Sequence record: MK962754.1
Reading direction: 5' to 3' (one strand)
Origin: Shigella phage JK36
DNA length: 64,000 bases
In this document: positions 11,358 to 64,000 of the stretch, piece by piece
Layout of the letters: each line of letters begins with the position of its first letter
Position numbering within the stretch: position 1 is the stretch's first letter
The notes under the pieces: generated by a model
Database searches by the model: none
The model's input: only the letters and a program-made list of their open reading frames with translations
Told to the model about the DNA's origin: nothing
Program-made: the position numbers and the translations under genes

Positions 11358-12170
11358 ATGATCAAAGAACAACTTTTGAAAGAAGCTCAGAACATCGAGA
11401 CTTCAGTTGCTCTTAATAGTGTTTTCGAATCAGTAGAACTGTCTCCGGACGTTAAAGCTAATTTCAGCACTGTATTCGAAGCCACCGTTAAGCAGGAAGC
11501 AGTCAAACTTGCTGAATCTCATATCAAAGCCATCGCCGAAAAGGCCGAAGAAGAAGTTGAAAAGGCTAAAGAAGATGCTGAAGAGAAAGCTGATAAAAAA
11601 TTGGCTGAACAAGCTTCTAAATTCCTAGACCATCTTGCAAAAGAATGGCTCGCAGAAAACCAAATCGCAGTTGATAAAGGCATTAAAGCTGATTTGTTCG
11701 AATCCATGCTTGGTGGTCTGAAAGAACTGTTTGTTGAACATAACGTTGTTGTTCCAGAAGAATCTGTAGATGTTGTAGCAGAAATGGAAGAAGAGCTGGC
11801 CGAACATAAAGAAGAAACCGCTCGTTTGTTCGAAGAAGTTACCAAACGTGATGCATATATCAATTACGTTCAGCGTGAAACCGCTATTAATGAAAGCGTA
11901 AAAGACCTGACTGAATCTCAGAAAGAAAAAGTTATTGGCCTGGTTGAAGGTATGGATTATTCTGACGCATTTGGTACTAAGTTAACTGCTATTGTAGAAA
12001 TGGTTAAAGGTTCTACTAAAGAAGAAGCCGCTATTACCGAAAGTATAAATACAGTTGACAATGACGCTGCCGGTCTTAATTTTGTTGCCGAAGCAGTTGA
12101 CACTACCACAACTCAGGTAGAACAGAATTCTAATGTAAGTTTATATGCGAAAGTCGCATCTCGTTTCTAA
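11358..12170 (+). CDS. 22: prohead scaffolding core protein gp22
   Basis: 270-aa Glu/Lys-rich coiled-coil-like ORF directly before the major capsid gene. Confidence 0.85.
   Translation: MIKEQLLKEAQNIETSVALNSVFESVELSPDVKANFSTVFEATVKQEAVKLAESHIKAIAEKAEEEVEKAKEDAEEKADKKLAEQASKFLDHLAKEWLAENQIAVDKGIKADLFESMLGGLKELFVEHNVVVPEESVDVVAEMEEELAEHKEETARLFEEVTKRDAYINYVQRETAINESVKDLTESQKEKVIGLVEGMDYSDAFGTKLTAIVEMVKGSTKEEAAITESINTVDNDAAGLNFVAEAVDTTTTQVEQNSNVSLYAKVASRF
12044..12051 (+). promoter_or_regulatory. candidate late promoter box TATAAATA inside the 3' part of gene 22 (possible gene 23 promoter)
   Basis: Exact TATAAATA 137 nt upstream of the gene 23 ATG; assignment is inference. Confidence 0.35.
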
Positions 12171-12577
12171 TTTAAAGGTTAACACAAATGACTACTATCA
12201 AAACTAAAGCTCAGCTCGTAGACAAATGGAAAGAACTGCTGGAAGGTGAAGGCCTGCCGGAAATCGCTAATAGCAAGCAGGCTATTATCGCTAAAATCTT
12301 CGAAAACCAGGAAAAAGATTTCGAAGTATCCCCTGAATATAAAGACGAGAAAATCGCTCAGGCATTTGGTTCTTTCTTGACCGAAGCTGAAATTGGTGGT
12401 GACCATGGTTATAATGCTCAGAACATCGCAGCGGGTCAAACCTCTGGTGCAGTAACCCAAATTGGGCCGGCAGTTATGGGTATGGTTCGTCGTGCTATTC
12501 CTAATCTGATCGCTTTTGATATTTGTGGTGTTCAGCCTATGAACAGCCCGACCGGTCAGGTATTTGCTCTCCGTGCA

Positions 12578-13422
12578 GTATATGGTAAAGACCCTATCGC
12601 TGCTGGCGCTAAAGAAGCTTTCCATCCGATGTATGCTCCAGATGCGATGTTCTCTGGTCAGGGTGCTGCTAAGAAATTCCCAGCTCTGGCTGCTGACACT
12701 ACTACTGTTGTAGGTGATATCTATACTCACTTCTTCCAAGAAACTGGTACTGTATATCTGCAAGCTTCTGCTGTCGTAACACTTGATTCTGGTGCAACTG
12801 ATGCAGCTAAATTAGATGCAGAAGTTAAGAAACAAATGGAAGCTGGTGCACTGGTAGAAATCGCTGAAGGTATGGCTACTTCTATCGCTGAACTCCAGGA
12901 AGGTTTCAACGGTTCTACCGATAACCCATGGAATGAAATGGGCTTCCGTATCGATAAACAAGTTATCGAAGCTAAATCTCGCCAGCTGAAAGCTGCTTAC
13001 TCTATCGAATTAGCACAAGACCTCCGTGCAGTACACGGTATGGATGCTGATGCTGAATTGAGCGGTATTCTGGCTACAGAAATTATGCTAGAAATCAACC
13101 GTGAAGTTGTTGATTGGATTAACTACTCTGCACAGGTTGGTAAATCTGGTATGACCCTGACTCCGGGTTCTAAAGCTGGTGTATTTGACTTCCAGGACCC
13201 GATTGATATCCGTGGTGCTCGTTGGGCCGGTGAAAGCTTTAAATCTCTGTTGTTCCAGATTCATAAAGAAGCAGTTGAAATTGCTCGTCAAACCGGTCGC
13301 GGTGAAGGTAACTTCATTATCGCTTCCCGTAACGTAGTTAACGTACTGGCTTCAGTTGATACTGGTATTTCTTACGCTGCACAGGGTCTGGCTTCTGGTT
13401 TTAATACCGACACTACTAAGTC
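12578..13422 (+). repeat. tandem duplication copy 1 (845 bp) within gene 23
   Basis: Aligns to 13423..14267 at offset 845; left flank differs at 12577 (a) vs 13422 (c); by eye the only mismatch is 13262 c vs 14107 g. Confidence 0.9.
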
Positions 13423-14267
13423 GTATATGGTAAAGACCCTATCGCTGCTGGCGCTAAAGAAGCTTTCCATCCGATGTATGCTCCAGATGCGATGTTCTCT
13501 GGTCAGGGTGCTGCTAAGAAATTCCCAGCTCTGGCTGCTGACACTACTACTGTTGTAGGTGATATCTATACTCACTTCTTCCAAGAAACTGGTACTGTAT
13601 ATCTGCAAGCTTCTGCTGTCGTAACACTTGATTCTGGTGCAACTGATGCAGCTAAATTAGATGCAGAAGTTAAGAAACAAATGGAAGCTGGTGCACTGGT
13701 AGAAATCGCTGAAGGTATGGCTACTTCTATCGCTGAACTCCAGGAAGGTTTCAACGGTTCTACCGATAACCCATGGAATGAAATGGGCTTCCGTATCGAT
13801 AAACAAGTTATCGAAGCTAAATCTCGCCAGCTGAAAGCTGCTTACTCTATCGAATTAGCACAAGACCTCCGTGCAGTACACGGTATGGATGCTGATGCTG
13901 AATTGAGCGGTATTCTGGCTACAGAAATTATGCTAGAAATCAACCGTGAAGTTGTTGATTGGATTAACTACTCTGCACAGGTTGGTAAATCTGGTATGAC
14001 CCTGACTCCGGGTTCTAAAGCTGGTGTATTTGACTTCCAGGACCCGATTGATATCCGTGGTGCTCGTTGGGCCGGTGAAAGCTTTAAATCTCTGTTGTTC
14101 CAGATTGATAAAGAAGCAGTTGAAATTGCTCGTCAAACCGGTCGCGGTGAAGGTAACTTCATTATCGCTTCCCGTAACGTAGTTAACGTACTGGCTTCAG
14201 TTGATACTGGTATTTCTTACGCTGCACAGGGTCTGGCTTCTGGTTTTAATACCGACACTACTAAGTC
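13423..14267 (+). repeat. tandem duplication copy 2 (845 bp) within gene 23
   Basis: Starts immediately after copy 1 (junction 13422/13423); right flank diverges at 14268. Confidence 0.9.
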
Positions 14268-14625
14268 TGTATTTGCCGGTGTACTTGGTGGTAAATACCG
14301 CGTATACATCGACCAGTATGCTAAACAGGATTACTTCACCGTTGGTTACAAAGGCGCTAACGAAATGGATGCAGGTATTTACTATGCTCCTTACGTTGCA
14401 CTTACCCCGCTGCGTGGTTCCGATCCTAAGAACTTCCAGCCGGTAATGGGCTTTAAAACTCGTTACGGTATCGGTGTTAACCCGTTTGCTGAAAGTTCCC
14501 TGCAGGCTCCAGGTGCTCGCATCCAGTCCGGTATGCCATCTATCCTGAACAGCCTTGGTAAGAACGCTTACTTCCGCCGTGTATATGTAAAAGGCATCTA
14601 ATCTTAATTGATTAAATCTTATTTT

Positions 14626-14649
14626 GGGAGACTTCGGTCTCCCATTTTT
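14626..14649 (+). terminator. rho-independent terminator after gene 23 (GGGAGAC-TTCG-GTCTCCC plus T-run)
   Basis: 7-bp GC-rich stem with UUCG loop followed by ATTTTT, just after the gene 23 stop. Confidence 0.75.
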
Positions 14650-14653
14650 GGTT

Positions 14654-14923
14654 TTATTTCTGTGCAATTTCGATGTAAGTTTTCAAAATATTTTGCCAAT
14701 TAGGCATACCTTCTTGGACATATGCCGGAGAACCGTCTTTGTTTTTGAATGATGCAAGTTTATCAGTGGCCCAATAACCTTTAGCTCGAGCTTCAGAATC
14801 AACTTTCATCCATACTTTGTTGAAGGCATTACCATTAACTTTTGCACCATATTTTTCTACTAACTTAACTGCTTCAGCTTCCAGAACTTTTAAAGTATCT
14901 CGTAAGAAACGTGCTTTAGTCAT
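14654..14923 (-). CDS. hypothetical small early protein (89 aa), antisense to the surrounding late genes
   Basis: ATG start with GAGGAG RBS about 8 nt upstream; early-type promoter at 14954..14983; ORF ends just before the shared terminator hairpin. Confidence 0.55.
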   Translation of the reverse strand: MTKARFLRDTLKVLEAEAVKLVEKYGAKVNGNAFNKVWMKVDSEARAKGYWATDKLASFKNKDGSPAYVQEGMPNWQNILKTYIEIAQK

Positions 14924-14953
14924 TTTGTTTACTCCTCTGTAGTTGATAAGTCT

Positions 14954-14983
14954 ATAGTATCACATACCAAATACGTTGTAAAC
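14954..14983 (-). promoter_or_regulatory. early-type promoter (minus strand: GTTTAC-N18-TACTAT) for the 89-aa ORF
   Basis: Reverse complement reads GTTTACaacgtatttggtatgtgaTACTAT; same motif family recurs upstream of many minus-strand genes here. Confidence 0.55.
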
Positions 14984-14989
14984 AATCTT

Positions 14990-14997
14990 TATAAATA
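14990..14997 (+). promoter_or_regulatory. late promoter box TATAAATA upstream of gene 24
   Basis: Exact TATAAATA 28 nt upstream of the gene 24 ATG. Confidence 0.6.
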
Positions 14998-15024
14998 ATC
15001 TATATCACATAAGGAAAAAATGCA

Positions 15025-16308
15025 ATGAGTAAAATCCAAAAATTATTGCGTGAATCTACAACGTCTACTAGCAACTCAATTGGTCGCCCAAATCTCGTTG
15101 CTTTGACTCGCGCTACGACTAAATTAATATATTCTGACATTGTAGCAACACAAAGAACTAATCAACCTGTTGCTGCTTTTTATGGTATCAAATATCTTAA
15201 CCCAGATAACGAATTCACATTTAAAACCGGTGCTACTTATGCTGGCGAAGTTGGATATGTAGACCGAGAAAAAATTACTGAGCTCACAGAAGAATCAAAA
15301 GTCACACTAAATAAAGGTGATTTTTTCAAATATAATAATATCGTCTATAAAGTGTTAGAAGATACACCATTTGCAGATATTCAAGAAAGTGATCTAGAAT
15401 TAGCTCTTCAGATTGCAGTCGTTCATTTAAAGGTACGGTTATTTTCAGATGCAGCGGTAACAAGCAAATTTGAAAGCTCTGGTAGCGAAATTTCTGATGC
15501 AAGATTCCAGATTAATAAATGGCAAACTTCAGTCAAATCTCGTAAACTTAAAACTGGCCTCACGGTTGAATTAGCGCAAGATTTGGAAGCGAATGGATTT
15601 GATGCCCCTAACTTCTTAGAAGATTTGCTTGCTACTGAAATGGCTGATGAAATTAATAAAGATATTCTTCAGTCTTTAATTACTGTATCGAAACGTTATA
15701 AAGTTACTGGAATTACTGACACCGGATTTATTGACTTGAGCTATGCATCCGCTCCAGAAGCAGGTCGTTCATTATATCGAATGGTGTGTGAAATGGTATC
15801 ACACATTCAAAAAGAGACAACTTATACTGCAACGTTTTGTGTAGCCTCAGCTCGTGCAGCTGCTATTCTTGCTGCTTCTGGTTGGTTAAAACATAAGCCA
15901 GAAGATGACAAGTATCTTTCACAAAATGCTTATGGATTCTTGGCAAATGGATTACCTCTTTACTGCGATACCAACAGTCCGTTAGATTATGTTATTGTGG
16001 GTGTTGTAGAAAATATCGGCGAAAAAGAAATTGTAGGGTCCATCTTTTATGCTCCATACACTGAAGGAGTAGATTTAGATGACCCGGAACATGTCGGTGC
16101 ATTTAAAGTTGTAGTTGATCCGGAAAGTTTGCAACCGTCTATCGGATTATTGGTTAGATATGCTTTATCAGCAAATCCTTACACAGTAGCAAAAGACGAA
16201 AAAGAAGCGAGAATAATTGATGGCGGGGACATGGATAAAATGGCAGGACGTTCAGACTTGTCTGTTTTATTAGGTGTTAAGCTACCAAAAATTATCATTG
16301 ATGAATAA
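15025..16308 (+). CDS. 24: capsid vertex protein gp24
   Basis: 427-aa ORF with gp23-like fold signatures; follows gene 23 as in T4. Confidence 0.9.
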   Translation: MSKIQKLLRESTTSTSNSIGRPNLVALTRATTKLIYSDIVATQRTNQPVAAFYGIKYLNPDNEFTFKTGATYAGEVGYVDREKITELTEESKVTLNKGDFFKYNNIVYKVLEDTPFADIQESDLELALQIAVVHLKVRLFSDAAVTSKFESSGSEISDARFQINKWQTSVKSRKLKTGLTVELAQDLEANGFDAPNFLEDLLATEMADEINKDILQSLITVSKRYKVTGITDTGFIDLSYASAPEAGRSLYRMVCEMVSHIQKETTYTATFCVASARAAAILAASGWLKHKPEDDKYLSQNAYGFLANGLPLYCDTNSPLDYVIVGVVENIGEKEIVGSIFYAPYTEGVDLDDPEHVGAFKVVVDPESLQPSIGLLVRYALSANPYTVAKDEKEARIIDGGDMDKMAGRSDLSVLLGVKLPKIIIDE

Positions 16309-29963: not shown

Positions 29964-30257
29964 TTATTTACGGAATGAAAGGAATGCTGGTGCTCGGAAT
30001 GGAGTATCATCTTTAGAGTATTTAACTAATACGACCATTGGTACCTCTGTTTCTAAATGACCTGTCACCACACCGATAAAAATTTGATCAGTGTGCTCAG
30101 GGTCACGAAAGTTTTTAAGAGGTTCCATAGCAATATGGAATGCACCTGGGAATACTCGATTCAATTCGTCAATCACAGCTTCGTTAAAAACATCATCCGC
30201 TGGGATAGCATCTTCAACTACTAGTTCTTGACCATTAAAGCGAAGCATAGATTTCAT
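29964..30257 (-). CDS. hypothetical early protein (97 aa), upstream neighbour of alt
   Basis: ORF-track start 30296 reads through the promoter; ATG at 30257 has GAGGAAAA RBS; early-type promoter at 30287..30316. Confidence 0.6.
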   Translation of the reverse strand: MKSMLRFNGQELVVEDAIPADDVFNEAVIDELNRVFPGAFHIAMEPLKNFRDPEHTDQIFIGVVTGHLETEVPMVVLVKYSKDDTPFRAPAFLSFRK

Positions 30258-30286
30258 AACGTTTTCCTCATGTTGTTGATGGGATG

Positions 30287-30316
30287 ATAGTATCACACAT
30301 CCATGTGTTTGTAAAC
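30287..30316 (-). promoter_or_regulatory. early-type promoter (minus: TTTACA-N18-TACTAT)
   Basis: Reverse complement reads agTTTACAaacacatggatgtgtgaTACTAT. Confidence 0.5.
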
Positions 30317-39272: not shown

Positions 39273-39854
39273 TTATTCACCACAAAAGTTTCGGATTTGT
39301 TCCCAATTCAGAGAACGAAGATTATTACGAGAGTACTGAATTACTTCAATACCGGCTTGTTTTAGAATGTCTGCCCAATTTTCAGGAGATCTGTCATATA
39401 ATTCTGCGTATACAACCTTTTTAATACCTGACTGTGTAATAGCTTTAGTGCAATCAGGACACGGAGAAAGCGTCGTATATAACGTAGCACCTTCAATAGA
39501 ATTACCTTTGCGAGCAGCAAACAAAATGGCATTTAATTCAGCATGGATTTCGTTATTAGCAGACCATGCACTATGAGCGGCCCGATGTTCTTTAGCCAAA
39601 ACAAAATTATCCACCCGTCCAAATGCTGTAGTGCCTTCTTTATGCCCAGCAACGATGACCGGGCTTGGTTTATTCTTCAACCAACCGTTTTCGGATGCAT
39701 GTTCGCAACAGTTTGTACCACCTGAAGGAGAGCCATTATAACCTGTAGAAATAATGCGTCCATCTTTTTCAATGACGGCGCCAACTTTCCATGAACAACA
39801 TTTTGATTCTTGAGAAATCAGATAAGCAATCTGAAGATATGTGCTAGCTTTCAT
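39273..39854 (-). CDS. cd: dCMP deaminase
   Basis: 193-aa ORF with zinc-binding deaminase motifs HAELNA and PCPDC. Confidence 0.9.
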   Translation of the reverse strand: MKASTYLQIAYLISQESKCCSWKVGAVIEKDGRIISTGYNGSPSGGTNCCEHASENGWLKNKPSPVIVAGHKEGTTAFGRVDNFVLAKEHRAAHSAWSANNEIHAELNAILFAARKGNSIEGATLYTTLSPCPDCTKAITQSGIKKVVYAELYDRSPENWADILKQAGIEVIQYSRNNLRSLNWEQIRNFCGE

Positions 39855-40090
39855 TATAGTGTTCCGTATACACGAGTTGCTTCAACTAAACCGTCACTGC
39901 CTAATTTAAGGCTAGTAATCTGGTCACCATCTTTAGGATTAACAATTATGAGAAAAGAACGTGGAGATTCTTGAATAACACGTAATGTTGCATCTTGGAA
40001 ACGTTCAGACACTTTATTGATAAGTGCTTGAGCAAATTCTTTTACTTTAATCTGAAATTCGTGCACTGTAATTGGGTTTTCACTTAGCAT
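39854..40090 (-). CDS. hypothetical protein (78 aa)
   Basis: ATG at 40090 with early-type promoter at 40117..40146. Confidence 0.55.
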   Translation of the reverse strand: MLSENPITVHEFQIKVKEFAQALINKVSERFQDATLRVIQESPRSFLIIVNPKDGDQITSLKLGSDGLVEATRVYGTL

Positions 40091-43131: not shown

Positions 43132-43619
43132 GTTTTAATAATCTCAATGATTTCATCTCGGGATAATCCATTGATAAGAATGGTTTTCAAACCATCACAC
43201 TGGATTTTGTACGATTCAAACAATACACACAACTCTTCTGCTGTATGATATGGACTTGAAATTCCGAGGCGGTTGAATTTGTCGGTAAGAGGGTCGCAAA
43301 TAATATAGAATTTGATACCTGCGATATGTACGTTTGGTTGACTAATATTAATGAACACATTAGCGTCATATTTAGTCAAATTGTTTTGAAGAAATTCTAC
43401 CATAGCATTAACTGCTTCTGGCATCGCTTCGCGTTTCTCTTCAGCGTATCGGGTTGAATACTCTTTTTGTTTTACTTTCTTTTTAAGATTTTTGGCCAGT
43501 GTAACACGTAGGTCAGTAAGATAACCAACTGGACGTCCTTTCTTAAAGACCCGGATTCCGTCGGTTGTGTCTCCAAAAGCGTTTACGACCATATCGTTAG
43601 TAATCAATTGCATATTCAT
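43119..43619 (-). CDS. alc: Alc transcription unfolding/termination protein
   Basis: ORF-track start 43661 reads through the promoter; ATG at 43619 (MNMQLITNDMVV...) has AGGAGAAAAT RBS; position between rnlA and spanins as in T4. Confidence 0.75.
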   Translation of the reverse strand: MNMQLITNDMVVNAFGDTTDGIRVFKKGRPVGYLTDLRVTLAKNLKKKVKQKEYSTRYAEEKREAMPEAVNAMVEFLQNNLTKYDANVFINISQPNVHIAGIKFYIICDPLTDKFNRLGISSPYHTAEELCVLFESYKIQCDGLKTILINGLSRDEIIEIIKTCLK

Positions 43620-43648
43620 AATTTTCTCCTCGTGTTGTTGATAAACCC

Positions 43649-43678
43649 ATAGTATCACCATCCTTGGTGTTTGTAAAC
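43649..43678 (-). promoter_or_regulatory. early-type promoter (minus: TTTACA-N18-TACTAT) upstream of alc
   Basis: Reverse complement reads ggTTTACAaacaccaaggatggtgaTACTAT. Confidence 0.5.
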
Positions 43679-49129: not shown

Positions 49130-50815
<1,686 letters not shown>

Positions 50816-50817
50816 AA

Positions 50818-51066
50818 TTATTTCCTCAGATTTTTCTTAACAACTTTCCAATCGGCTTTGAACATTTCAACATCAGAGTGGCAAATCCAGAATCCTGCAC
50901 TTTCACCATCTTCGTAGAGTGGACATCCATCACATTCTTCGTTCCAACCCATTTCGCGTAAAGCTTCTTCAGCTTGTTCAAGGAGTTCAGCATCTTTACC
51001 AACGATGTTGAAGTACCATTTACCTCTAACTTCAGAATCTTTGATGCTCTGACGTTGCAATCTCAT
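50818..51066 (-). CDS. hypothetical protein (82 aa)
   Basis: ORF-track start 51129 reads through a promoter-like region; ATG at 51066 (MRLQRQ...) has AAGGAG RBS. Confidence 0.55.
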   Translation of the reverse strand: MRLQRQSIKDSEVRGKWYFNIVGKDAELLEQAEEALREMGWNEECDGCPLYEDGESAGFWICHSDVEMFKADWKVVKKNLRK

Positions 51067-51128
51067 TTTATTCTCCTTCACTTTTGATTTGATAGGGCTA
51101 CTATAACATAACCCTATCTGATTGTACA

Positions 51129-51521
51129 CTACTTTTTAAAAGTTTTTTGCAAAAGTTCGATGATTTCGTCGACGTTGGTTTCATCTACGATACAATGGAT
51201 TTTTGTTACACCTAAAGCTATACCTTCGTTAGTAGGTTGAGGCTTTACTATATCTACCTCAGTAAAGTATTTGAACTCGTCAGGATAAATCTCAAAATAA
51301 GTTTCAATTTCACCACCGGCAGAACATACAGTACCATCTTCCATAGTTACACTTAATACGTTTGACGTATCGCTATCATAATCAGGTTCCATTCCGTTTA
51401 CAACAAAACTAGGCCCGTGGAGTTCAATCAATTTTAACATCTTAGCGTTATTGTGTGGTGCTTCTTGAACAAAGTCATCTTTAAATAAAGGGTTAATGAT
51501 ATAAGATTTTCCGATTTCCAT
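51129..51521 (-). CDS. hypothetical protein (130 aa)
   Basis: ORF with early-type promoter at 51551..51579. Confidence 0.55.
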   Translation of the reverse strand: MEIGKSYIINPLFKDDFVQEAPHNNAKMLKLIELHGPSFVVNGMEPDYDSDTSNVLSVTMEDGTVCSAGGEIETYFEIYPDEFKYFTEVDIVKPQPTNEGIALGVTKIHCIVDETNVDEIIELLQKTFKK

Positions 51522-51550
51522 TTTGATTTCCTCATGTTGTTGATAGGTCT

Positions 51551-51579
51551 ATACTAACACATCCAGGGAAGAAGTAAAC
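51551..51579 (-). promoter_or_regulatory. early-type promoter (minus: GTTTAC-N17-TAGTAT)
   Basis: Reverse complement reads ttGTTTACttcttccctggatgtgtTAGTATAGAC. Confidence 0.55.
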
Positions 51580-54919: not shown

Positions 54920-57900
54920 ATGGCCGACATCAAACGTAAGTTCAGAGCCGAAGACGGTCTGGACGCCGGTGGCGACAAGATTGTTAACGTAGCATTAGCC
55001 GACCGTACAGTAGGTACTGATGGCGTAAACGTTGACTTCCTGGTACAAGAAAACACCGTTCAAGTATATGATTCTACGCGTGGATATAATAAAGGATTTG
55101 TTGTTCTTTATGACAACCGTTTATATCAAGCAATAAATGATATCGTGTCTCCTTCCGGGGCATTTAACCTTTTACAATGGCGTGCAGTTCGTACTGATGC
55201 ACAATGGATAACTGTCGCTTCTGGGACTTATCAACTTTCTTCAGGTGAATCGATTTCGGTTAACACTGGTGCCGGCAATGATATGGTTTTCACGTTGCCA
55301 AATGCGCCGGTTGATGGTGATACTGTTGTTTTGGCTGATATTGGTGGAAGAACCGGGACAGTTAAAGTACAGATTAACGCGTCTGTGCAGAGTATTTTAA
55401 ACTTTAGAGGTGAACAAGTTCGTACAGTTTTAATGACGCGCCCACGTTCACAACTATTGTTTGTGTTTAGTAATCGTTTGTGGCAGATGTATATTACCGA
55501 TTATGGTAAAGAATCAATCACTGTTACACCTGCGTCACCATATCAAGCACAAGCAAATGATTTTATCGTTCGTCGTTTTACTAGTGCAGCACCAATCAAC
55601 ATTACACTTCCACGTAATGCTAACAATGGTGATATAATCAGCCTAGTCGATTTAGATAGATTAAACCCACTGTATCATACAATTGTTAAAACATTTGATG
55701 ATACAACGTCTATTGGTGAAGTCGGGACTCATATTGCCGAAGGCAGAAATGACTCTGACGCGTTTTTTGTTTTTGATGCTGCAAGTAGTTTATGGCGTAT
55801 ATGGGAAGGCGACCAGAAATCGCGTCTTCGTATTATCCGTGCGGATTCAAATATTCGTCCAAATGAAGAAGTTCTTATTTTTGGCACAAATAACGCTACA
55901 GCCGGAACTATTAATCTTACGCTGCCTACAGGAATTTTGAGTGGTGACACTGTTAAAATTTCAATGAACTACATGCGTAAAGGCCAAACAGTAAAAATTA
56001 AAGCTGCCGAAGGTGATACAATTGCTTCTTCTGTTGCATTGCTTCAGTTCCCTAAACGTTCTGAATATCCACCTGATGCTCAATGGGTCTCTGTTACTGA
56101 ACTAGAATTCAATGGCACTACTTCATATGTTCCTGTATTAGAATTAGCGTATATCGAAGACACTGTTGCTGGTACAAGTTATTGGGTTGTTCAACAAAAC
56201 GTCCCAACTGTAGAACGTGTTGATGCTGGAACTGATGCTACACGAGCTCGTTTAGGTGTTATTGCTCTTGCTACTCAAGCGCAAGCAAATGTTGATTTAG
56301 AGAATACTCCAGCTAAAGAAGTGGCTATTACTCCTGAAACGTTGGCAAATCGTACAGCAACTGAAGCTCGACGTGGTATCGCTAAAATTGCTACAACAGC
56401 ACAAGTTAACCAGAATTCCACAGCATCATTTGTGGACGATACTATTGTTACGCCTAAAAAACTAAATGAGCGTACAGCAACTGAAACTCGTCGCGGTCTT
56501 GCTGAAATTGCTACTCAGACTGAAACCGATGCTGGTCTTGATGACACAACGATTATTACACCTAAGAAATTGCAGGCACGTCAGGGTTCTGAAACACTAT
56601 CAGGTATAGTTAAATATGTATCAACTACTTCTGCTACTCCTGCTGAAACTCGTGGTGCTGCAGGCACTAACGTTTATAATAAAACCGTAAATAATTTAAC
56701 TATTTCTCCTAAAGCCCTTGACCAATATAAAGCAACTTATGCTCAACAAGGTGCAGTAATTTTAGCTGTTGATAGTGAAGTAATTGCTGGTCAATCACAA
56801 GCAGGTTATTCTCACGCTGTAGTAACTCCTGAAACACTACATAAGAAAACTTCTACTGATGGACGTATTGGTTTAATTGAAATTGCTACGCAAACAGAAA
56901 CTAATGCTGGGACTGATTATACACGTGCAGTAACGCCTAAGACGTTAAATGATAGGAAAGCTACGGAAGGATTATCCGGCATAGCCGAACTTGCTACGCA
57001 AGTTGAATTTGATACTGGAACTGATGATACTCGTATCTCGACTCCACTGAAAATTAAAACTCATTTTGATTCTTCTGACCGTACCAGTGTTAATTCTGAT
57101 TCTGGACTTATTGAAGAAGGAACCTTGTGGAACCATTATACTCTTGATATTTCTAAAGCAAATGAAACACAACGTGGTACACTTCGCGTAGCGACTCAGG
57201 CAGAATCTAATGCAGGAACTTTAGATGATGTTCTTATTACTCCTAAAAAGCTTTTAGGGACTAAGTCCACTGAAACGTCTGAAGGCGTAATTAAGGTTGC
57301 TACTCAGGCTGAAACTATAACAGGAACTTCTGCTAATACTGCTGTATCTCCTAAGAATTTAAAATGGATTGTCCAGAATGAACCAACATGGGCTGCTACT
57401 ACAGCAATTCGTGGATTTGTTAAAACTTCATCTGGTTCAATTACATTCGTTGGTAATGATACAGTTGGTTCAACACAACCTTTAGAATCATATGAAAAAA
57501 ATAGCTATGCTATATCTCCATATGAATTAAACCGTGTATTAGCAAATTATTTGCCATTGAAAGCTAAAGCCGTAGATAGTAATTTATTAGATGGACTAGA
57601 TTCATCTCAGTTCATTCGTAGGGACATTGCACAGACGGTTAATGGTTCACTAACCTTAACCCAACAAACGAATCTGAGTGCCCCTCTTGTATCATCTAGT
57701 ACTGCTACGTTTGGTGGTTCGGTATCTGCTAATAGTACACTGACTATTTCTAATACGGGAACAGCTACTCGACTGATTTTTGAAAAAGGACCTCAGACTG
57801 GAACTAACCCAGCACAGACGATGACTATCAGAGTTTGGGGAAATCAGTTTGGTGGCGGATCAGATACAACACGTTCTACTGTATTTGAAGTTGGTGATGA

Positions 57901-58795
57901 AACGTCTAATCATTTTTATTCTCAACGTAATAAAGATGGGAATATAGCGTTTAGCATTAATGGTACTGTGATGCCAATAAATGTTAACGCTTCAGGCACG
58001 TTAAATGCGAATGGTGTTGCAACATTTGGTCGTTCAGTTACAGCCAATGGTGAATTCATTAGCAAGTCTGCAAATGCTTTCAGAGCAATTAGTGGTGATT
58101 ACGGATTCTTTATTCGCAATGATGGAGGCAGCACATATTTTATGCTTACTGCATCAGGTGATCAGACTGGTGGATTTAATGGATTACGTCCATTATCAAT
58201 TAATAACCAATCCGGTCAGATTACAATTGGTGAAGGCTTAATCATTGCCAAAGGTGCTACTATAAATTCAGATGGTTTGACTGTTAACTCGAGAATTCGT
58301 TCTCAGGGTACTAAAACATCTGATTTATATACCCGTGCACCAACATCTGATACTGTAGGATTCTGGTCAATCGATATTAACGATTCAGCCACTTATAACC
58401 AGTTCCCAGGTTATTTTAAAATGGTTGAAAAAACTAATGAAGTGACTGGGCTTCCATACTTAGAACGTGGCGAAGAAGTTAAATCTCCTGGTACATTGAC
58501 TCAGTTTGGTAATACACTTGATTCACTTTACCAAGATTGGATTACTTATCCAACAACTCCAGAAGCACGTACAACCCGTTGGACACGTACATGGCAGAAA
58601 ACTAAAAATTCTTGGTCAAGTTTTGTTCAGGTATTTGATGGTGGAAACCCTCCTCAACCTTCTGATATTGGTGCTTTACCTTCTGATAATGCAACAATCG
58701 GAAACTTGACAATAAGGGATTTCTTAAGGATTGGTAATGTCCGCATTATTCCAGACCCTGTGAATAAATCTGTTAAATTCGAGTGGATTGAATAA
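54920..58795 (+). CDS. 34: long tail fibre proximal subunit gp34
   Basis: 1291-aa ORF with several copies of a TPKKL...ATE..RG.AEIATQ.E motif; T4 order rnh/34-35-36-37. Confidence 0.92.
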   Translation: MADIKRKFRAEDGLDAGGDKIVNVALADRTVGTDGVNVDFLVQENTVQVYDSTRGYNKGFVVLYDNRLYQAINDIVSPSGAFNLLQWRAVRTDAQWITVASGTYQLSSGESISVNTGAGNDMVFTLPNAPVDGDTVVLADIGGRTGTVKVQINASVQSILNFRGEQVRTVLMTRPRSQLLFVFSNRLWQMYITDYGKESITVTPASPYQAQANDFIVRRFTSAAPINITLPRNANNGDIISLVDLDRLNPLYHTIVKTFDDTTSIGEVGTHIAEGRNDSDAFFVFDAASSLWRIWEGDQKSRLRIIRADSNIRPNEEVLIFGTNNATAGTINLTLPTGILSGDTVKISMNYMRKGQTVKIKAAEGDTIASSVALLQFPKRSEYPPDAQWVSVTELEFNGTTSYVPVLELAYIEDTVAGTSYWVVQQNVPTVERVDAGTDATRARLGVIALATQAQANVDLENTPAKEVAITPETLANRTATEARRGIAKIATTAQVNQNSTASFVDDTIVTPKKLNERTATETRRGLAEIATQTETDAGLDDTTIITPKKLQARQGSETLSGIVKYVSTTSATPAETRGAAGTNVYNKTVNNLTISPKALDQYKATYAQQGAVILAVDSEVIAGQSQAGYSHAVVTPETLHKKTSTDGRIGLIEIATQTETNAGTDYTRAVTPKTLNDRKATEGLSGIAELATQVEFDTGTDDTRISTPLKIKTHFDSSDRTSVNSDSGLIEEGTLWNHYTLDISKANETQRGTLRVATQAESNAGTLDDVLITPKKLLGTKSTETSEGVIKVATQAETITGTSANTAVSPKNLKWIVQNEPTWAATTAIRGFVKTSSGSITFVGNDTVGSTQPLESYEKNSYAISPYELNRVLANYLPLKAKAVDSNLLDGLDSSQFIRRDIAQTVNGSLTLTQQTNLSAPLVSSSTATFGGSVSANSTLTISNTGTATRLIFEKGPQTGTNPAQTMTIRVWGNQFGGGSDTTRSTVFEVGDETSNHFYSQRNKDGNIAFSINGTVMPINVNASGTLNANGVATFGRSVTANGEFISKSANAFRAISGDYGFFIRNDGGSTYFMLTASGDQTGGFNGLRPLSINNQSGQITIGEGLIIAKGATINSDGLTVNSRIRSQGTKTSDLYTRAPTSDTVGFWSIDINDSATYNQFPGYFKMVEKTNEVTGLPYLERGEEVKSPGTLTQFGNTLDSLYQDWITYPTTPEARTTRWTRTWQKTKNSWSSFVQVFDGGNPPQPSDIGALPSDNATIGNLTIRDFLRIGNVRIIPDPVNKSVKFEWIE

Positions 58796-60667: not shown

Positions 60668-63600
60668 ATGGCTACTTTAAAACAAATACAATTTAAAAGA
60701 AGCAAAACCGCAGGTGCACGTCCTGCTGCTTCAGTATTAGCCGAAGGTGAATTGGCTATAAACTTAAAAGATAGAACTCTTTTTACTAAAGATGATTCAG
60801 GAAATATCATCGATTTAAGCATTTCCGCTGGCGGTAATATCAGTGGAAATATCACTCAAACTGGTGATTATACACAGACTGGAAAATTTAATTTAATTGG
60901 CCCACAGATTATAGCAAGTGGTGGATATATTGAGTTTAATTATCGTACTACTGGAAGTGGGGCTTGGTCCGGTCAACACACTGCAAAAGCTCCAATTTTT
61001 GTAGATTTAAGCTCAGCTACTTCCACATCTGAATATAATCCTATAATTAAACAGCGCTTTAAAGATGGAACTTTTTCATTAGGTACTTTAGTTTCTGAAG
61101 GTTCGTTAAAGATTCATTATATTGATGAAACTGGTCAATCTAAATATTGGACATTTGCGCGCTCAGGTAATTTTCAAGTTGATTCTGGTAATTTATTAGT
61201 ATCTGGTGGGTATTTAGTCGCTCAGAGTAATATTGAAACAAGAACAGGTTCTTTGATTGGTCCATCTGTTGTAACTAAAAATATTTCATTTGATACGAAA
61301 GCGTTTGGACAATACGATTCGCAGTCATTAGTTCAATATGTTTATCCTGGAACTGGTGAAACAAACGGAATTAATTACCTTCGTAAATTCCGTGCAAAAT
61401 CTGGTGGTACGATTTATCATGAATTAGCTTCTGCACAAACCGGAAAAAGCGATGAACTGTCTTGGTGGACCGGTAATACAGCCGTTAATAAACAAATGGG
61501 CCTTCGCAATGATGGGTCTTTAGTGTTGCGACGCTCACTCGCAATTGGTACAATTACAACAGATGAAAACATTAATAATTACGGCTCCACTGGAGCAATG
61601 GGTGAATGCTATATAGTCATTGGAGATGCCGCAACTGGTGTATCATATAAAAGATCTGGTGTATATGATTTAGTTGCTAATGGTCTTTCTATCGCGTCTA
61701 TTACTCCTGACAGTTTCCGTAGTACTCGTAAAGCATTATTTGGACGTTCAGAAGACCAAGGCGGAACATGGAATATGCCTGGAACGAACGCTGCGCTTTT
61801 ATCAGTTCAAACACAAGCTGATGGAAACTCTGCCGGTGATGGTCAAACCCACATTGGATATAATTCTGGCGGTAAAATGAATCATTATTTTCGTGGTACT
61901 GGTCAGATGAATATCAATACCCAACAAGGTATGGAAATTAATCCAGGACTGTTGAAACTAACAACCGGTACAAACAATGTAATGTTTTATGCTGATGGCG
62001 GTATTACATCCACTAAGCAGCTTTCAATATATAATGGTGTATATTTAGCAGCTAATAATTCTACTGCTGGGCTAACATTCGCTCCAACTACTACAGTTGA
62101 TGGCACTAAGCAAATTTTGTGGGAAGGCGGTACTCGTCCTGGTCAGAATAAAAGCTATGTAACTGTTAAAGCGTGGGGTAATTCATTTAACGCATCTGGC
62201 GATCGTAATCGTGAAACAGTTTTTGAAGTAGCTGACGGACAAGGTTATTATTTTTATTCCCAACGCGTAGCCCCAAGCGGCTCAGAAACTACTGGTCCTG
62301 TTGTAACCCAGTTCAATGGACAAGTTAATGCTAGAGGAAGTATTATTACTGACGGAAGTTTTAAAGTTAATGGATTAAGCACTTTAGTCGGTAATGTTAC
62401 CATGTCTAACGGTTTGTTTGTCCAAGGTGGTTCTTCTATTACTGGACAAGTAAAAATTGGTGGAACAGCTGATGCATTAAGAATTTGGAATGCCGAATAT
62501 GGTGCCATTTTCCGCCGTTCAGAAGCATCATTACATATTATCCCGACTCCTAAAGATGCCGGTGAAAGTGGTGGAATAAGTAATCTCCGCCCGTTAAGTA
62601 TTAGTCTTAATAATGGTATGGTACAAATGCGCCATTCCGTTACATTAGGTGATGATGGTGCAGGCGGTAATATGGTGACGGTTGATAATGATTCTAAAGT
62701 TATGGTAATGACGACTAATAGCCGTATTAGTCCTAACTTCCGTATGCAAATTGGACAGTCGTCTTATATTGATGTGGAATGTACTGATGCTGTGAGACCT
62801 GCTGGAGCCGGTTCTTTTGCTTCACAGAATAACGAAAACGTTCGCGCTCCGTTCTATATGAATATTGATAGAACAGATACAAGCACTTATGTTCCTATTG
62901 TGAAACAAAGATACGTTCAAAATAATAGTTGCTATTCTATTGGTACTTTAATTAATGGTGGTAACTTTAGAGTTCATTATCATGAAGGCGGTGACGGCGT
63001 TTCTACTGGTGCTATTATAAAGGATCTTGGATGGGAATTTAATAAAAACGGTGATTTTTATTCTCCTGGTAAATTAGGCGCTGGAAATATTAGAATAGGT
63101 ACTGATGGTAATATTACTGGCGGAACTGGTAACTTTGCTAACTTGAACACAACTATCGAATCATTAAAAACCGATATTGTTTCAAGTTATCCTATTGGAG
63201 CTCCTATTCCATGGCCTACAGATACTCCTCCTAATGGTTACGCTATTATGGAAGGACAGACTTTTGATAAGTCTGCATACCCAAAATTGGCTATAGCTTA
63301 CCCATCTGGAGTAATTCCTGATATGCGCGGGCAAACTATCAAAGGTAAACCAAGCGGTCGTGCTGTATTAAGCGCAGAAGCCGATGGTGTTAAGGCTCAT
63401 AGCCATAGTGCATCGGCTTCAAGTACTGACTTGGGTACTAAAACTACGTCGAGTTTTGATTATGGTACTAAGACGACAAGTAGCTTTGACTATGGCACTA
63501 AGACTAGCAATACCACAGGTAACCACTCTCATACTGTAAGCGGTACTACGAGTTCTGCTGGTGCACACCAACATGCGCGCTCAGGTCCTCAGATACAAGC

Positions 63601-63943
63601 CGGCATACCCAATAACATATTCTATGACGGATATAATAGTGTAGGTGCAAACGCCAACGCTAAATTCACTGGAACCGTGAACGGTGCTACTGCAGGGTCG
63701 AATATAGCCAAAACTTCTTCAGACGGTGCTCATACCCATACTTGGTCTGGTACTACAAGCACTACAGGTAACCATGCTCACACAGTAGGTATTGGTGCTC
63801 ATACCCATACTGTAGGTATCGGTGCCCACTCTCATTCGGTAGCGATTGGTTCCCATGGACATACAATAACTGTAAATGCCACAGGAAATACAGAAAACAC
63901 AGTTAAAAACGTTGCTTTTAACTATATCGTTCGTTTAGCATAA
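60668..63943 (+). CDS. 37: long tail fibre distal subunit gp37 (receptor-binding tip)
   Basis: 1091-aa ORF; C-terminal region with repeated G-x-H-x-H motifs and T4-type end ...[11 protein letters not shown]. Confidence 0.92.
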
Positions 63944-63948
63944 GGAGA

Positions 63949-63962
63949 GGGGCTTCGGCCCC
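63949..63962 (+). other. hairpin GGGGC-TTCG-GCCCC between genes 37 and 38
   Basis: 5-bp GC stem with TTCG loop; no clear T-run, so more likely an RNA structure than a terminator. Confidence 0.35.
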
Positions 63963-63970
63963 TTCTAAAT

Positions 63971-64000
63971 ATGAAAATATATCATTATTATTTTGACACT
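63971..64000 (+). CDS. 38: gp38 tail-fibre assembly chaperone, first 10 codons only (3' end outside window)
   Basis: ATG at 63971 with open frame to window end; MKIYHYYFDT matches my memory of the T4 gp38 N-terminus. Confidence 0.6.
   Translation, partial: MKIYHYYFDT

Follow-up and report, generated by a model that had tools for sequence, protein, structure and literature searches.

An 845-nt tandem repeat within the major capsid gene of Shigella phage JK36 is most likely an untrimmed assembly overlap

Gene 23 and its surroundings

The DNA analysed here is a 64,000-nt stretch of the Shigella phage JK36 record MK962754.1, referred to below as the window, and judged by its letters it is a Mosigvirus genome (RB69-like, Straboviridae) of an E. 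coli phage. The order of genes 20, 67, 68, 21, 22, 23 and 24 is shared with the Mosigvirus relatives, and gene 23, which encodes the major capsid protein, sits between gene 22 and gene 24 as it does in all of them (Table 1). The T4-type late-promoter motif TATAAATA stands upstream of gene 23, and the next + strand copy after the one at 12044 is found at 14990, ahead of gene 24. Throughout the window the motif occurs 17 times against 7.2 expected, a count that 0 of 100 shuffles reach, at positions that include 5742, 7136, 7792, 8412, 10368, 11320, 12044, 14990, 17348 and 19823; most copies lie on the + strand before structural genes, a pattern that agrees with late transcription of the T4 type.

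Gene 23 is interrupted by an internal tandem duplication, in which two direct copies of an 845-nt unit adjoin without a spacer and are identical at 844 of 845 positions. When each base between 12400 and 13600 was compared with the base 845 positions downstream, matches ran continuously from 12578 to 13422 with the sole exception of position 13262, and agreement dropped to the background level just beyond both edges. A repeat finder recovered the same pair at a spacing of 845, and both approaches confirm the head-to-tail arrangement; Tandem Repeats Finder is blind to the repeat solely because its longest period is 500. A repeat of 845 nt at 99.9% identity cannot be attributed to chance, and it is the only long repeat within the 64-kb window. 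An intron, a homing endonuclease or any other insert is ruled out, because the apparent insert duplicates adjacent gene sequence.

Re-translation of the sequence as written gives a discontinuous gene 23. Both of its fragments match the Gp23 family of Pfam (PF07068, gathering cut-off 24.4 bits), the first with 272.5 bits over positions 1-282 of the 376-position profile and the second with 332.6 bits over positions 74-375, and the sequence as written holds no full-length gp23 ORF (about 520 aa, covering the whole profile). Exact-protein look-ups of the two split ORFs found neither of them on record. In T4 gp23 is essential, and because the sequence as written lacks a complete version of it, a phage with such a genome could not form plaques; the consensus genome that was obtained is nonetheless of high quality. 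A motif scan found no copy of TATAAATA inside the repeat, which leaves the second fragment without a late promoter, and on that ground its independent expression is ruled out.

Once either copy is removed, gene 23 is 1569 nt long and codes for 522 aa, and only in this collapsed form is the whole Gp23 profile covered. Without copy 1, gene 23 differs from that of phage APCEc01 by 2 nt and 1 aa, and the encoded protein is identical to the gp23 of 5 of 10 public contigs (ENA, NCBI, Logan, JGI). At 1569 nt and 522 aa the collapsed gene is like gene 23 of the RB69-like Mosigvirus phages APCEc01, vB_Eco_mar005P1, JS09 and HX01, whereas the gene as written is set apart from all four by its 845-nt internal repeat and the frameshift. 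The first-pass annotation of this DNA had placed near-identical adjacent copies at 12578..13422 and 13423..14267, had given the unit as 845 nt and not divisible by 3, and had split the gene into pieces of 456 and 375 aa that would merge into a single ORF of about 522 aa upon deletion of either copy. This description holds in full: an 845-nt off-diagonal runs from 12578 to 13422 when the sequence is compared with itself, the unit length is indeed not a multiple of 3, and both pieces are recovered as ORFs.

Table 1 Features of the gene 23 region (positions in the window; aa, amino acids)
Feature	Position	Strand	Remarks
Gene 22, prohead scaffold protein (PF25623)	11358..12170	+	Intact
TATAAATA, T4-type late-promoter motif	12044..12051	+	Upstream of gene 23
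Gene 23, major capsid protein, as written	12188..14601	+	2414 nt; interrupted by internal tandem duplication
N-terminal fragment ORF	12188..13558	+	456 aa, of which 412 are native and the last 44 out of frame
Copy 1 of the 845-nt unit	12578..13422	+	gp23 codons ~131-412; carries C at 13262
Only difference between the copies	13262 and 14107	+	C, His359 at 13262; G, Asp359 at 14107; non-synonymous
Novel junction CACTACTAAGTC/GTATATGGTAAA	13411..13434	+	0 nt microhomology; probable join of two contig ends
Copy 2 of the 845-nt unit	13423..14267	+	Carries G at 14107 (Asp359), like relatives
C-terminal fragment ORF	13474..14601	+	375 aa; begins inside gp23, at Met148
Gene 24, capsid vertex protein, gp23 paralogue	15025..16308	+	Intact

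The region in relatives and the state of the window

The duplication was found in none of the collections that were searched. Among the 1042 phage records that matched a 3201-nt query (window 11800-15000), the best relatives listed hold the region in 2356 nt, that is, as a single copy, and none of the 871 phage records that matched a 200-nt query centred on the junction spans it, coverage reaching about half of the query at most. Neither the exact junction string nor two variant-bearing stretches gave an exact match in IMG/VR, and the junction region gave none in complete E. coli genomes, in PLSDB plasmids or in a scan of GTDB genome contigs. All ten contigs with an identical gp22 (ENA, NCBI, Logan, JGI) encode a 522-aa gp23. 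A metagenome scan returned only OQVO01008972.1 (1964 nt, about 98-99% identical), which does not span the junction; positions 1014-1950 of this contig match window 12003-12939 at 99.1% and its first ~1 kb is unmatched to the window region, such that this short contig might be chimeric or rearranged. A literature search found no paper on a capsid duplication in Mosigvirus.

The remainder of the window is in good order. The closest phage record over window 1-25000 is APCEc01, at 99.4% identity, and over window 39001-64000 the best identity in the phage collection is ~96% at most. By local alignment the whole window is collinear with APCEc01 at 99.4-99.5%, the exceptions being the 845-nt duplication, a segment of ~1.1 kb that is absent, and a diverged distal tail-fibre segment. 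The alignment contains 13 small indels, none of which breaks another ORF of at least 100 aa, and a noisy long-read assembly is ruled out on this count. Among ORFs of 100 aa or more, interruption inside the window is limited to gene 23, and one additional case is cut by the window edge. The two flanks of the repeat are 99.49% and 99.46% identical to APCEc01, and this equality on either side rules out a two-strain chimera across the junction.

Several features elsewhere in the window deserve a record of their own. The ~1.1-kb segment of APCEc01 (record 50258-51353) that is missing at window ~39854-39857 corresponds to APCEc01_082, annotated as a phospho-2-dehydro-3-deoxyheptonate aldolase (DAHP synthase); here the dCMP deaminase ORF (39273..39854, minus strand) directly adjoins a small ORF at 39854..40090, and APCEc01_082 is an accessory gene present or absent between very close relatives. 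In the gp37-like distal long tail fibre ORF (60668..63943, + strand, 1091 aa), positions 60850-63098 have no megablast match in APCEc01 and 63098-64000 match at only 85% identity, against more than 99% for the rest of the window, a divergence that suggests that the receptor-binding region was replaced in mosaic fashion. The exact gp37-like protein is not on record in a collection of 15 billion proteins, and an exact look-up of the gp34 protein likewise found no record. The gp34-like proximal tail fibre ORF (54920..58795) holds five copies of a 44-nt motif at 56351-57195, with 61-86% identity and irregular spacing of 120, 375, 108 and 198 nt; they are repeats within the coding sequence of the tail-fibre shaft. 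Three copies of a module of ~46 nt share 74-76% identity (30252-30297, 43614-43659 and 51516-51561). Read on the minus strand, the module looks like an early promoter of T4 (GTTTAC, ~18 nt, TACTAT) with GAGGAAA and an ATG behind it, and it may resemble the promoter-early cassettes described as mediating modular shuffling in T4-type genomes.

The junction and the origin of the repeat

The two copies abut at 13422/13423, where the junction core is AAGTC/GTATATGG. On the left, the flank of the repeat reads GCTCTCCGTGCA and leads into the unit start GTATATGGTAAA; on the right, the unit end CACTACTAAGTC is followed by TGTATTTGCCGG. Microhomology at the exact junction is 0 nt on either side, which bears out the absence reported in the first-pass annotation with one refinement: the wild-type right flank, AAGTC-T-GTATTTG, has GTAT in common with the unit start, one base out of register, a stretch that BLAST spans with a 1-nt gap. 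A microhomology event at GTAT would yield an in-frame unit of 846 nt, and the observed unit is one T shorter. We regard the out-of-register GTAT as a coincidence noticed after the fact, one whose odds are a few percent; it is the one feature that leans toward a real event, in that it could hint at a microhomology event followed by the loss of 1 nt. Genuine T4 tandem amplifications carry boundary microhomology of 6-10 bp, with a range of 2-10 bp (bioRxiv 10.1101/2022.04.14.488369).

A junction free of microhomology is also compatible with ligation-type chimeras, and a laboratory or library chimera, whether from MDA or PCR template switching or from a concatenated insert, might have entered the consensus. 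Single chimeric reads, however, seldom win the consensus at normal phage depth, and no other chimeric junction lies within the 64 kb, so that we hold such an origin to be extremely improbable; the practical conclusion is in any case unchanged from that of an end overlap. Contamination by a g23 marker amplicon is ruled out, because the codons covered by the unit do not match the amplicon of the marker primers MZIA1bis and MZIA6, from DICGVQPM to EIMLEINRE.

The repeat is best read as an untrimmed overlap left where the two ends of a circularly permuted assembly were joined, a reading to which we assign a probability of about 85% and for which the assembly history is one that we infer. T4-type genomes are circularly permuted and terminally redundant, and assemblers therefore close them into circles with an arbitrary cut. 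Circular phage contigs are indeed cut by assemblers at random positions (PMC5418689), and the Phage Annotation Guide describes an overlap artefact of this kind, with terminal repeats seen mid-sequence in submissions (PMC8785237). For JK36, the assembler would have closed the circle and cut it at an arbitrary point within gene 23, the contig would have run 845 nt beyond one full genome length, and the overlapping ends would later have been joined head to tail with no trimming. The occasion for the join may have been rotation to a conventional start, the ordering of contigs along a reference, or the circular treatment of a contig whose termini are direct repeats. The phage itself would then possess one intact gene 23 and a normal 522-aa capsid protein.

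A junction with 0 nt of microhomology is as expected for an arbitrary cut. More broadly, an over-extended contig explains the adjacency of the copies, the arbitrary edges, the out-of-frame unit, the absence from relatives, the clean collapse, the mismatch and the otherwise clean genome. The marks of an artefact are found together at this locus, namely adjacent copies of near-100% identity, a collapse that restores both collinearity and an intact gene, absence from relatives, and no microhomology, the last with the caveat of GTAT. Similarly to the artefact of the Guide (PMC8785237), the repeat is direct and near-perfect, has arbitrary edges and no microhomology, and restores the gene on collapse; unlike that artefact, it is internal and not at the record ends, it is longer than k-mer overlaps, and its link to contig ends is reconstructed. 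The internal position implies rotation or joining after assembly. As a counterpoint, an overlap of 845 nt exceeds the k-mer overlap of 55-141 nt that is left by common de Bruijn assemblers, which points to an assembler of the overlap or long-read type, or to joining by hand. Of the two explanations put forward in the first-pass annotation, an untrimmed end overlap is thus the better supported, by the absence of the repeat from relatives, its clean collapse, its standing as the sole defect in 64 kb, the lack of microhomology, and a near-junction variant that is unmatched elsewhere.

This variant is the C at 13262 in copy 1. An 81-nt query around it is exact in 0 of the 190 phage records that it matched, and the G version of the same stretch, taken from copy 2, is exact in 89 of 205; Asp359 is found in 11 of 11 relatives examined. 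Copy 2 is therefore the normal sequence, G/Asp359 being common and C occurring in no matching record. The junction follows position 13262 at a distance of 161 nt. Were copy 1 the 3′ terminus of an original contig, the site would fall within about one read length of that end, where coverage is thin and errors in the consensus are frequent, and the C would be a consensus error or a minor variant drawn from the thinly covered contig end. A single mismatch placed uniformly would fall this near the end ~19% of the time, and its position therefore lends the contig-end reading only mild support.

The same site could be taken to speak for a mis-join of two contigs or of co-assembled strain variants, in which a bubble, for example C/G at codon 359, was concatenated in reference order. 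A single differing site between the copies is what two haplotype contigs could show, and an unmerged concatenation in reference order gives an identical tandem structure. Against this, the two flanks are equally close to APCEc01 and the nt-509 variant is present in both copies, leaving no sign of two strains, and a lone SNP in 845 nt is not usually enough to break an assembly. We consider such a mis-join very unlikely, and in practice it is a subtype of the end-overlap explanation with an identical biological conclusion.

The remaining possibility is a genuine tandem duplication in the sequenced DNA, created by a recent illegitimate or microhomology-mediated recombination of 845 (or 846 minus 1) nt and giving a capsid-defective genome, which we judge to be unlikely. 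Such a genome would be short-lived, and might be sustained by complementation from co-infecting wild type or by homologous recombination between the copies, which could restore an intact gene 23 within the replicating DNA. The extra 845 nt amount to ~0.5% of the genome, within the reach of headful packaging, GTAT is present at the boundary albeit one base out of register, and the single substitution between the copies could be a post-duplication mutation. On the other hand, the only copy of an essential gene is destroyed, and the strong counter-selection that follows should keep such a genome from dominating the consensus; 845 nt of perfect homology should collapse fast in so recombinogenic a phage; and none of the relatives examined carries the duplication.

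T4-type phages readily form tandem duplications and amplifications (rII, genes 16-18, dmd-tifA) (bioRxiv 10.1101/2022.04.14.488369), and the repeat resembles the microhomology-mediated ones (rII; genes 16-18 of Hp17; dmd-tifA) in being a head-to-tail segment of sub-kilobase to kilobase size. These amplifications, however, have 2-10 bp of microhomology, hold whole genes under positive selection for dosage, and are viable (bioRxiv 10.1101/2022.04.14.488369), whereas in JK36 the exact junction has 0 bp, below the 2-10 bp range, and the unit is an intragenic fragment of an essential gene that leaves no functional capsid protein. As such, the other explanation of the first-pass annotation, a defective genome, stands as far as the head-to-tail repeat goes and fails on the missing microhomology and on a unit that contains no whole gene, which leaves it a doubtful one. 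A more specific form, a population in which the out-of-frame gene 23 duplication is dominant or at high frequency, as a cheater or defective-interfering genome that uses gp23 from wild type or from segregants, we regard as decidedly improbable.

Consequences for the record and for gp23-based work

The duplication is most likely not a biological feature. A public record that carries it would have gene 23 annotated as two pseudogene-like fragments and would overstate the genome length by 845 nt, and gp23-based phylogenies and marker surveys would inherit a truncated or duplicated marker together with a spurious D359H variant. The correction would consist of deleting 12578-13422 and keeping copy 2, with its G at codon 359 and the conserved Asp359. 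If the duplication were real, the record would hold a naturally occurring capsid-defective T4-like genome, and only then would the repeat be of biological interest.
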